From Bacilli bacterium (GTDB lineage: Bacteria > Bacillota_I > Bacilli_A > RFN20 > CAG-826), in contig JBGUQI010000022.1 in NCBI GenBank assembly GCA_045130875.1, positions 215,795 to 279,794 of the forward strand: a DNA stretch of 64,000 bases. Direction: 5' to 3'. Below, in pieces: positions 39,788-40,894 of this stretch. How positions within the stretch are numbered: the stretch's first letter is position 1; each line of letters begins with the position of its first letter. The notes beneath the pieces are model-generated. The model searched no databases, was not told the DNA's origin, and saw only the letters and a list, made by a program, of their open reading frames with translations. Both the position numbers and the translations under genes were made by a program.

Positions 39788-39819
39788 TTGACACATACCC
39801 ACGCCTAATATATAAATAT
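39788..39819 (+). promoter_or_regulatory. Sigma-70-type promoter (TTGACA-17-TATAAA) that fires into the riboswitch
   Basis: The -35 TTGACA lies at 39788-39793 and a -10-like TATAAA at 39811-39816, so the predicted transcription start site (TSS) falls just before the aptamer. Confidence 0.5.
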
Positions 39820-39825
39820 ATGTGT

Positions 39826-39892
39826 GAAATGCAAACCTAGAGAGATCTAGCGACGCAAAGCTATAGGGCCTGAAAAGGCAGCCAGTTACCTC
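39826..39892 (+). promoter_or_regulatory. c-di-GMP-I (GEMM) riboswitch aptamer
   Basis: The sequence is GCAAACC-CUAGA(GAGA)UCUAG-CGACGCAAAGCUAUAGGGCC...GGCAGCCAGUUACC. It matches the GEMM hallmarks seen in Vibrio Vc2: GCAAACC, a P1 hairpin with a GNRA tetraloop, GACGCAAAGC, and a 3' CAGCC.GUUACC. Confidence 0.8.
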
Positions 39893-39934
39893 AAATTAGT
39901 ACTAATTATTATGAAGAGAGCTGGCAACAAACCA

Positions 39935-40894
39935 ATGAAAATAATTGCCGCTACCGCCGTAGCGTCTTTTTCTTTAGTTGCCGCCGTTGTTTCCACAATT
40001 GCCTGGTTCATGTTAGCCAATAAAGTTAAAGGCAAAGATGTCAAAGTAGTCATCGAAGATCCTTCCGATAGCGTTGCTGAAATCACCTTCCATAAATATC
40101 GCGGTTTAAGCACCGATTCATATTATTTATTCAACCCAGAGCCAGAAGCGACTTTAAGAATTGAAAACAAACAAATCGTTTTAGATGCTCCCGCAGGTTT
40201 TAGCGGTATTACATTAGATACATATTCTGCTGAAAATAGACACCATCCTTTATTAATGCTCTTCAAACTTAAAAAGAGTGGTTTAAACCTCTATGCCAGA
40301 ACAGAACATCCGTTCATGGCAGAATTCAAACCAACTTCATATACCACAGTCGCATCACATGGCGCTCTCACCCACGTCACCACTACAAGTTTTGTGGGTG
40401 GCGAAACTTACTACGTAACTCATGACGAAGTCAATGGCGGTATGGATGGTTCCACCTACGGCCCAACAGCCTATAGATGGGATGTAGATGCTAAAAAATG
40501 GGATATGATTTGGGGCGATCTTGGTGCAAGTAAAAATCCTCTTTCTAGCGTGATGGAAACATATTTCTTTATGTTTAGTTTTGCTTCACCTAGTGAAGGT
40601 GCAAATACATCTCATGCCTTAAATGGTTCAAATCCAAATAGTATCCCCATTGCGCAAAATGATTGTACAGAAACAAATCAAAGATCATTTGTGCAATTTG
40701 AGAATGGTACATTCTCTCACTTCTCCAAAACCATTACCTTCTTTGAAGGTCAGGTTCAAGAAAACACCGTTTATTTAGGCATTATGGTTGATTATTACTC
40801 ATTAGCGCTTGAATATATTTCCTCCTATTACTTAGGAGATGCTCGTGTTACTGCGGGTTTAAATTTCACATGTGATTGGTTAATAGGTCTATAA
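39935..40894 (+). CDS. Secreted protein with SipW-cognate-type signal peptide, paralog B
   Basis: The N-terminus is MKIIAATAVASFSLVAAVVSTIAWFMLANK. An alternative start lies at 39911. The C-terminus carries an FFEGQ motif. Confidence 0.55.
   Translation: MKIIAATAVASFSLVAAVVSTIAWFMLANKVKGKDVKVVIEDPSDSVAEITFHKYRGLSTDSYYLFNPEPEATLRIENKQIVLDAPAGFSGITLDTYSAENRHHPLLMLFKLKKSGLNLYARTEHPFMAEFKPTSYTTVASHGALTHVTTTSFVGGETYYVTHDEVNGGMDGSTYGPTAYRWDVDAKKWDMIWGDLGASKNPLSSVMETYFFMFSFASPSEGANTSHALNGSNPNSIPIAQNDCTETNQRSFVQFENGTFSHFSKTITFFEGQVQENTVYLGIMVDYYSLALEYISSYYLGDARVTAGLNFTCDWLIGL

Follow-up and report, generated by a model that had tools for sequence, protein, structure and literature searches.

The stretch considered here (the window, 64,000 nucleotides (nt) of contig JBGUQI010000022.1) comes from the chromosome of an uncultured bacterium of the rumen that belongs to the Bacilli. 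Its genes include those for RNase Y, MiaB, Der, MnmG and SufB, and its MnmG shares 74-78% identity with proteins from metagenome-assembled genomes of reindeer, goat and cattle rumen labelled Bacilli or Erysipelotrichaceae. In the current analysis we have studied a riboswitch aptamer of the cyclic-di-GMP-I (c-di-GMP-I) class, the two genes that follow it, encoding proteins of 327 and 1012 amino acids (aa), and a covarying terminator-like hairpin located inside the first of these open reading frames (ORFs).

The aptamer and its transcription unit

The unit comprises, in order, a promoter, the aptamer, the 327-aa gene, the 1012-aa gene and an operon terminator at 43955-43979 found by the terminator scan (Table 1). 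Since the gene upstream ends in a strong terminator of its own and the promoter follows it, the riboswitch heads its own transcription unit. The same arrangement has been identified in 16 of 16 related loci (designated by L numbers) from rumen-type metagenomes, whose homologues of the 327-aa protein are 62-89% identical to that of the window. Twelve of these loci reach the promoter, 14 are included in the covariation alignment and 11 are complete for folding.

Table 1. Features of the riboswitch-controlled unit, in window coordinates
Feature	Position	Strand	Description
Intrinsic terminator of upstream gene (38780-39667)	39686-39713	+	terminator scan: 9-bp stem, 6 GC pairs, then TTTTTTG
Sigma-70-type promoter	39788-39816	+	TTGACA 39788-39793, 17-nt spacer, TATAAA 39811-39816
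c-di-GMP-I aptamer	39820-39893	+	Rfam RF01051, full model 1-87; 54.7 bits (gathering score 35), E = 6e-8
Aptamer P1a	39823-39826 with 39890-39893	+	Vc2-numbered mapping
Aptamer P1b/P2	39831-39856	+	GNRA loop GAGA
Aptamer P3	39859-39887	+	Vc2-numbered mapping
Switching strand	39881-39891	+	GCCAGUUACCUC; 3' strand of P3/P1a (ligand-bound) or 5' strand of predicted OFF helix
A/U palindrome	39894-39907	+	AAUUAGUACUAAUU; caps predicted OFF-state hairpin 3 nt before AUG; core UUAGUACUAA invariant
Start codon of 327-aa gene	39911-39913	+	N-terminus MKRAGKK conserved in 12 homologues
Relay segment	39916-39927	+	GAGAGCUGGCAA; codons 2-6; partner 39881-39891 (OFF) or 39945-39952 (ON), both predicted
Candidate antiterminator 3' strand	39945-39952	+	UUGCCGCU; codons 12-14; overlaps first 4 nt of terminator stem
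Intragenic intrinsic terminator (predicted)	39949-39976	+	stem CGCUAC/GUAGCG, loop CGCC (39949-39964), then UCUUUUUCUUUA (39965-39976); codons 13-22
Regulated gene 1, 327 aa	39911-40894	+	N-terminal hydrophobic segment ends in AWF
Regulated gene 2, 1012 aa	40896-43934	+	N-terminus of the same kind as the 327-aa protein; large unnamed family

An earlier note on this DNA had placed the aptamer at the start of a transcript driven by the TTGACA-17-TATAAA pair. Both parts of this proposal agree with the sequence. The two hexamers and their spacing are kept in 12 of the 12 loci that reach that far, with a variable spacer sequence, and the end of the -10 hexamer is always 5 nt ahead of the motif GUGKGAAA in the related loci. 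Based on this conservation and this fixed distance, transcription is predicted to start at about 39822-39824, which is the 5' edge of P1a and of the aptamer. A consensus promoter scanner misses the pair solely because it demands T at the sixth position of the -10 hexamer.

ATG 39911 has been assigned as the start of the 327-aa gene because the N-terminus MKRAGKK is conserved; a second ATG (39936) is not, and was rejected as the true start. No Shine-Dalgarno-like motif is found in the 25 nt before ATG 39911. About half of the genes in the window likewise have none in a survey of such motifs, so that this ATG is not exceptional. The motif AAGAGAG was considered as a Shine-Dalgarno sequence for a downstream start and rejected, as its spacing is 15 nt and no start is conserved there. 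We also rejected the idea of a terminator upstream of the ATG, as the interval separating it from the aptamer contains only an A/U palindrome. This palindrome is 10-16 nt long across the 16 loci, and one matched U/A insertion lengthens it in loci of the L002 type. A perfect palindrome TTAGTACTAA at 39896-39905, just 5' of the ATG, is invariant in all loci of the clade and is absent from the distant locus L098 described below. Its possible roles are to cap the OFF-state hairpin or to bind a protein.

From the covariance-model match, the aptamer is a member of the c-di-GMP-I family by its fold and by most of its predicted ligand contacts. The GNRA loop appears as GAGA, GAAA, GUGA, GCAA or GUAA across the loci and its stem is kept. 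P3 is short, and 13 distal model positions, where the tetraloop receptor would lie, are deleted in the Rfam alignment. The numbering of the Vc2 aptamer was transferred through the G21-C46 and G45-C22 pairs (PMC11705072). The ligand is contacted in Vc2 by G20, A47 and C92 (PMC4744006, PMC5888326). The equivalents of A47 (A39857), of C92 (C39889) and of the C44-G83 pair (C39854/G39881) are present and invariant in 14 loci. The equivalent of G20, which makes a Hoogsteen contact to one guanine of the ligand, is U39830 in the window. Within the clade about half of the loci have U here, most of the others have C, and L004 alone has G. In every other aptamer encountered in the lineage (a tandem pair downstream in the window, L012 and L098, described below) the base at this position is A (A20).

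These substitutions weigh against assigning c-di-GMP as the ligand, and raise the possibility that the aptamer senses another ligand, or c-di-GMP only weakly. A mutation of G20 in Vc2 is reported to reduce binding 30,000-fold (PMC4744006), and a named Rfam variant class with U at this position exists. Position 20 is, however, a feature of ligand contact and not of the fold, at which Rfam members vary, and canonical c-di-GMP-I remains the best match in the clan. The invariance of the remaining contact residues, the L004 locus, which has G20 and is otherwise the same switch, and the GGDEF and EAL genes flanking the cluster also speak for c-di-GMP. Free drift among U, C and G indicates relaxed constraint and not a new specific contact. 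We regard this alternative, of another ligand or of only weak binding of c-di-GMP, as quite improbable. The drift suggests that the G20 contact is not used, and the aptamers of this clade may be low-affinity sensors.

Complementarities and a terminator-like hairpin in the first 22 codons

The sequence GCCAGUU (39881-39887) in the 3' strand of the aptamer is complementary to AGCUGGC (39919-39925) in codons 3-5 of the ORF, forming 7 pairs of which one is G.U. This alternative pairing just past the first ATG had been predicted in the earlier note. It is confirmed by the complementarity and by RNAfold, which places the helix in both the minimum free energy (MFE) and the centroid structures of 39823-39960. 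The helix is present in the MFE structure of 11 of the 11 complete related leaders, with 7-8 of its 8 pairs formed. A translational riboswitch that sequesters a Shine-Dalgarno sequence was considered and rejected, as the element occluded by this helix is the AUG-proximal coding region, with no Shine-Dalgarno-like motif.

A second element has been identified further into the ORF, where the terminator scan flags CGCTACCGCCGTAGCG followed by TCTTTTTCTT. The site is located 38-65 nt into the ORF, within the region coding for the predicted signal peptide, and consists of a stem of 6 bp (4 GC pairs) with a 4-nt loop followed by a U-tract, as in intrinsic terminators. In unconstrained folds of 39822-39985 the aptamer-strand/codon helix and this hairpin form together, and they coexist in 10 of the 11 complete loci.

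The stem of the hairpin covaries. In the 14-locus alignment 100% of the cells are paired and three of the six pairs are changed on both sides; none of 500 column shuffles reaches the covariation score, and slid controls drop to 25-38% paired. In L007, GCT>GCC occurs with GTA>GTG, both synonymous, and turns a U-A pair into C-G. Loci of the L002 type combine ACC>ATG/ATC with GTA>ATA (C-G to U-A), and L014 combines ACC>GTC with GTA>ACG, by which two pairs are changed. The stem is thus kept by synonymous changes in the first case and by paired amino-acid swaps in the other two.

Codon choice is constrained over the same region. The normalised codon entropy of codons 1-22 is 0.145, compared with 0.574 for the remaining codons of the gene (Mann-Whitney p = 5e-5). 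A single codon is used in 7 of the 11 qualifying columns of this region and in 15 of 149 outside it. The codons frozen in this way, GCT-GGC (4-5), ATT-GCC-GCT (12-14), GCG (18) and TTT-TCT-TTA (20-22), coincide with the partner of the aptamer strand, the segment preceding the stem, the stem base and the U-tract. Codons 4 and 5 are represented by a single codon in every locus retaining the residue, and the U-tract codons for F, S and L are invariant.

Codons 2-26 were also recoded synonymously in 5000 trials. The duplex of the aptamer strand with the coding sequence (-14.1 kcal/mol) is equalled by 1.4% of the recodings and the number of U residues in the tract by 3.6%. None of the 5000 recodings equals this duplex, the U count and the hairpin energy jointly, and none equals all four features, which include the antiterminator duplex described next.

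The segment AGCUGGCAA (39919-39927) is complementary to the 3' strand of the aptamer and also, with U39922 bulged, to UUGCCGCU at the 5' flank of the terminator stem. Since AGCUGGC(AA) can pair with either, the alternative pairing noted earlier appears to be the opening step in an attenuation relay. If the aptamer pairs are enforced and the RNA is cut at 39953-39960, ahead of the 3' arm of the terminator, the MFE structure of the leader in the window is exactly the helix AGC.UGGCAA:UUGCCGCU. Under these conditions the candidate antiterminator is found in all 11 complete loci, with 5-8 of 8 pairs and all 8 in eight loci, and 97% of the cells of the AGCUGGCAA/UUGCCGCU complementarity are paired. 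These complementarities suggest a relay in which the aptamer would control an anti-antiterminator, this an antiterminator, and the latter the terminator.

A similar layout has been observed in a distant locus, L098. Its homologue of the 1012-aa protein shows 49% identity. The gene ahead of it encodes a protein of 282 aa with 27% identity to the 327-aa protein (E = 1e-28), and the signal peptides of these last two proteins align. A c-di-GMP-I aptamer of 63.5 bits ends 19 nt ahead of its ATG. In the manner of the OFF helix, UCUCAAC of P3 and CAGUUGCC find their partners, GUUGAGA and GGCAGUUG, at ORF positions +3..+13, and CAUGGCA pairs with UGUUAUG, which adjoins the terminator. Codons 14-24 (locus coordinates 1697-1717) contain the hairpin AUGCGCA-GCCGGAA-UGUGCAU followed by UUUUUGUUUA. 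No other terminator-like site was found over 1.1 kb, against a chance expectation of 0.4 sites. L098 provides independent confirmation, the four-part layout of the window being built there from unrelated sequences.

The identity of the aptamer, all four complementarities, their conservation and the covariation of the terminator stem are demonstrated by these comparisons. The earlier note had argued for translational control of the two genes rather than a terminator mechanism. The conserved helix at the start region and the lack of a terminator in the 5' untranslated region (UTR) are in keeping with the first part of that statement and the terminator hairpin inside the ORF is not. Its exclusion of a terminator is not supported, in view of the covarying hairpin with its U-tract and of their recurrence in the 27%-identical orthologue.

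Related riboswitches of the lineage also contain predicted terminators. In L012 (2768-2872) a 70-bit c-di-GMP-I aptamer precedes a 24%-identical homologue of the 327-aa protein, and genes for an EAL protein and a nucleosidase are located upstream, as in the window. The 3' strand of this aptamer, GACAGCC, pairs with a UTR segment, GGCUGUC, that is followed by UUUUAUU. In the window two aptamers are arranged head to tail at 44622-44773, behind a TTGACA-17-TAATAT promoter (44589-44617). The second (44694-44773) is of the c-di-GMP-I class with 62.8 bits. The first (44622-44698) was found by a narrow search only, and its best model is c-di-GMP-I-UAU with 57.6 bits against a gathering score of 65.9. 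The terminator of the pair would seem to be the long-range helix AGCCAGU(U)GC / GCACUGGCU at about 44759-44832, with UUUAUU after it. In both sister switches the 3' strand of the aptamer is itself an arm of the predicted UTR terminator, which would place aptamer and terminator in direct competition, and the design is thus simpler than that proposed for the 327-aa gene, with two states in L012. The use of terminators by both suggests that control by termination is a habit of the lineage.

The aptamer studied here had earlier been described as nearly identical to the second tandem copy, from which duplication of the regulatory unit was proposed. Only one base differs over 39831-39868, but the copies diverge at the P3 tip, at position 20 and in the two flanks. 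A duplication is plausible only for the core of the aptamer. Downstream of the tandem aptamers, a terminator-like hairpin TCGGCTATCATGTCGG followed by TTCTTTCACT is located at 45028-45053, in the 5' part of the ORF 44922-45773, and may be due to chance.

A proposed ON switch and competing explanations

These observations point to a c-di-GMP-I-class ON riboswitch with an expression platform inside the ORF and coherent dual action on transcription and translation, to which we assign a probability of roughly 0.55. Transcription would begin at about 39822. In the absence of ligand, the switching strand would pair with codons 2-5 (39916-39925) and close a hairpin of about 45 nt around the AUG. UUGCCGCUAC would be left free, the hairpin 39949-39964 and its U-tract would form, and the polymerase would stop at about 39970-39976, leaving an RNA of only about 150 nt that is not translated. 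Binding of c-di-GMP would keep the switching strand in P3 and P1a, and AGCUGGCAA would be free while 39945-39952 is transcribed. It could then pair with UUGCCGCU as an antiterminator and mask the 5' flank of the terminator co-transcriptionally. The AUG region would be open, the polymerase would read through, and the 327-aa and 1012-aa secreted proteins would be made. Beside attenuation, closure of the start region would add a second effect acting in the same direction. In this scheme we infer the ligand and the direction of switching, and likewise that termination takes place and that the antiterminator has a kinetic advantage. High c-di-GMP is usually linked to surface or matrix proteins, and the ON direction fits this link.

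Besides the base at position 20, several observations weigh against this proposal. The antiterminator helix shows no covariation and its duplex is equalled by 8% of the synonymous recodings. Its energy is -7.4 kcal/mol compared with -7.9 kcal/mol for the terminator, and it overlaps just 4 of the 6 nt of the 5' arm. Folding of the full leader with enforced aptamer pairs still gives the terminator in 10 of 11 loci, in some cases lacking its basal pair, and in these equilibrium folds the antiterminator is at least partly displaced (0 or 5 of 8 pairs stay). A hairpin of equal energy is obtained in 33% of the recodings of this Ala-rich peptide. The related loci are close kin, with a mean column identity of 88%, and represent few independent evolutionary events.

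The weakness of the antiterminator keeps alive two other explanations, of which the simpler is a purely translational ON switch. Its sole event would be the pairing of 39881-39891 with 39916-39925, occluding the AUG and +6..+15, and the hairpin and U-tract inside the ORF would be a by-product or serve another role in the region coding for the signal peptide. The OFF helix is conserved and is present in every MFE structure, and initiation at a start with no Shine-Dalgarno sequence would need an open start region. Both facts suit this explanation, as do the weak antiterminator at equilibrium and the ease with which the peptide yields hairpins of similar energy. It does not account for the covariation of the stem, synonymous changes included, or for the invariant codons TTT, TCT and TTA of the U-tract. 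A hairpin and U-tract of different sequence at the same codons in L098, and the terminators of the sister riboswitches, also argue against it. On balance control by translation only appears unlikely.

The second explanation gives the decisive part to the ribosome. The riboswitch would gate ribosome loading, the first ribosome over codons 1-22 would melt the terminator, and termination would merely report that translation is absent, so that an RNA antiterminator would be dispensable. The position of the terminator just 13-22 codons into the ORF, the closing of the start region by the OFF helix and the marginal antiterminator are consistent with such a role. About 65 nt separate the AUG from the site of release, which we consider to leave little time for initiation and 13 codons of translation unless the polymerase pauses. 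Moreover, transcription and translation have been reported to be uncoupled in Bacillus subtilis, and the complementarity of AGCUGGCAA and UUGCCGCU, for which this model has no need, is kept in 97% of the cells. We consider attenuation through the ribosome to be rather improbable, and prefer the ON switch with its platform in the ORF.

A wider extension of the proposed ON switch can be imagined, in which we place little confidence. The whole decision circuit would be dual-coded in the signal peptide, with the stem kept by T/V and M/I swaps. The aptamer, having lost G20, would differ from the A20 tandem switch 5 kb downstream either in its threshold or in the cyclic dinucleotide that it recognises. 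The two operons would then form a graded programme for a secreted fibre or adhesin family in rumen Bacilli.

Regulated proteins, neighbouring genes and known systems

The 327-aa and 1012-aa proteins match no model in Pfam or NCBIfam, and sequence searches of PDB with the regulated proteins gave no relative. The AlphaFold2 model of the 327-aa protein is unusable (predicted local distance difference test score, pLDDT, 45), and a search of genome contigs with an alignment of this protein found no relative. The 1012-aa protein has at least 602 homologues, none of which carries a Pfam domain or a name. A hydrophobic N-terminal segment ending in AWF is found in the products of 38816-39667, 39911-40894, 40896-43934 and 45763-46749, and one ending in AWY in that of 46753-47838; these five proteins matched no Pfam or NCBIfam model. 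These N-termini resemble SipW-type signal peptides such as that of TasA, although they matched no family model. None of the scanned ORFs could be recognised as a signal peptidase gene. From their N-termini, both regulated products are predicted to be secreted proteins. The 1012-aa family most likely comprises surface or matrix proteins of uncultured rumen Bacilli.

A PAS-GGDEF gene (37652-38581, - strand) is located on one side of the cluster, and an EAL gene (51590-53146, + strand) and a gene for a 1042-aa EAL-containing protein (53927-57055, + strand) on the other, so that they bracket both riboswitch-controlled operons. Enzymes of c-di-GMP turnover are thus encoded beside the riboswitch cluster. 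The GGDEF protein, read by eye, appears to have Asn at the site where canonical cyclases have Asp and the Hypr enzymes making cyclic GMP-AMP (cGAMP) have Ser; this residue is nine residues past the base-contacting Asn, in YNKTSSFEMIN. Within the second riboswitch-controlled operon an AAA_5/McrB-like ATPase of 505 aa with a transmembrane N-terminus is encoded at 47838-49355, among uncharacterised proteins. The window also contains an RNase P class B RNA (12764-13087, - strand, 288 bits) and a flavin mononucleotide (FMN) riboswitch (20628-20740, - strand, 85 bits) upstream of a 230-aa ORF (19909-20601).

Riboswitch annotation and the design of reporters usually end at the start codon. A terminator inside the ORF would escape a reporter fusion that stops at the ATG or codon 5, and the result would mislead. 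The locus illustrates clearly, in a natural setting, how RNA structure and protein sequence constrain one another, with frozen synonymous sites and paired amino-acid changes. It would also tie c-di-GMP signalling to the nameless, domainless family of the 1012-aa protein and so give that family a first functional handle. The natural variants with U, C and G at position 20 allow the importance of that contact to be tested.

The aptamer is similar to the c-di-GMP-I riboswitches Vc2 of Vibrio cholerae and Bc1 and Bc2 of Bacillus in its fold, as recognised by the covariance model, in the GNRA loop of P2 and in the equivalents of A47 and C92. It shares with c-di-GMP-I riboswitches the location in the 5' UTR and, as predicted, the control of surface or secreted proteins. 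Unlike Vc2, Bc1 and Bc2 it has a short P3 and, within its clade, U, C or G and not a constant G at position 20. Bc2 is an ON switch using a terminator, and Bc1, the platform of which is a 220-nt UTR, has dual effects on transcription and translation (PMC11218506). In contrast to these UTR platforms, the relay, antiterminator and terminator proposed here are located in codons 2-22 of the ORF.

The U at position 20 is shared with the variant c-di-GMP-I-UAU (RF03168), whose consensus has U92 where the window has C39889. With C at position 92 and the best score to RF01051, which is kept in clan competition, membership of RF03168 was rejected. The first tandem aptamer has this variant as its best model, yet it is below the gathering score and has A20 instead of U. 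The GEMM-Ib riboswitches of Geobacter recognise 3',3'-cGAMP with a specificity tied to position 20 (PMC7266159). The window clade has the common scaffold and differs from GEMM-Ib, which has A20, in its U, C or G. The sequences of the neighbouring tandem aptamers, L012 and L098 have A20, as in GEMM-Ib.

In its chain of mutually exclusive helices ending in a stem and a U-tract, the proposed platform resembles the four-segment attenuators and antiterminator riboswitches of Firmicutes. Unlike in those systems, the chain overlaps translated signal-peptide sequence and the changes in the stem are amino-acid or synonymous codon changes. A shallow literature search found no described case of a riboswitch terminator inside an ORF. 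The relay, antiterminator and terminator within the ORF, with a terminator stem kept by covariation of codons and amino acids, would represent an unusual variant and not a new kind of system.

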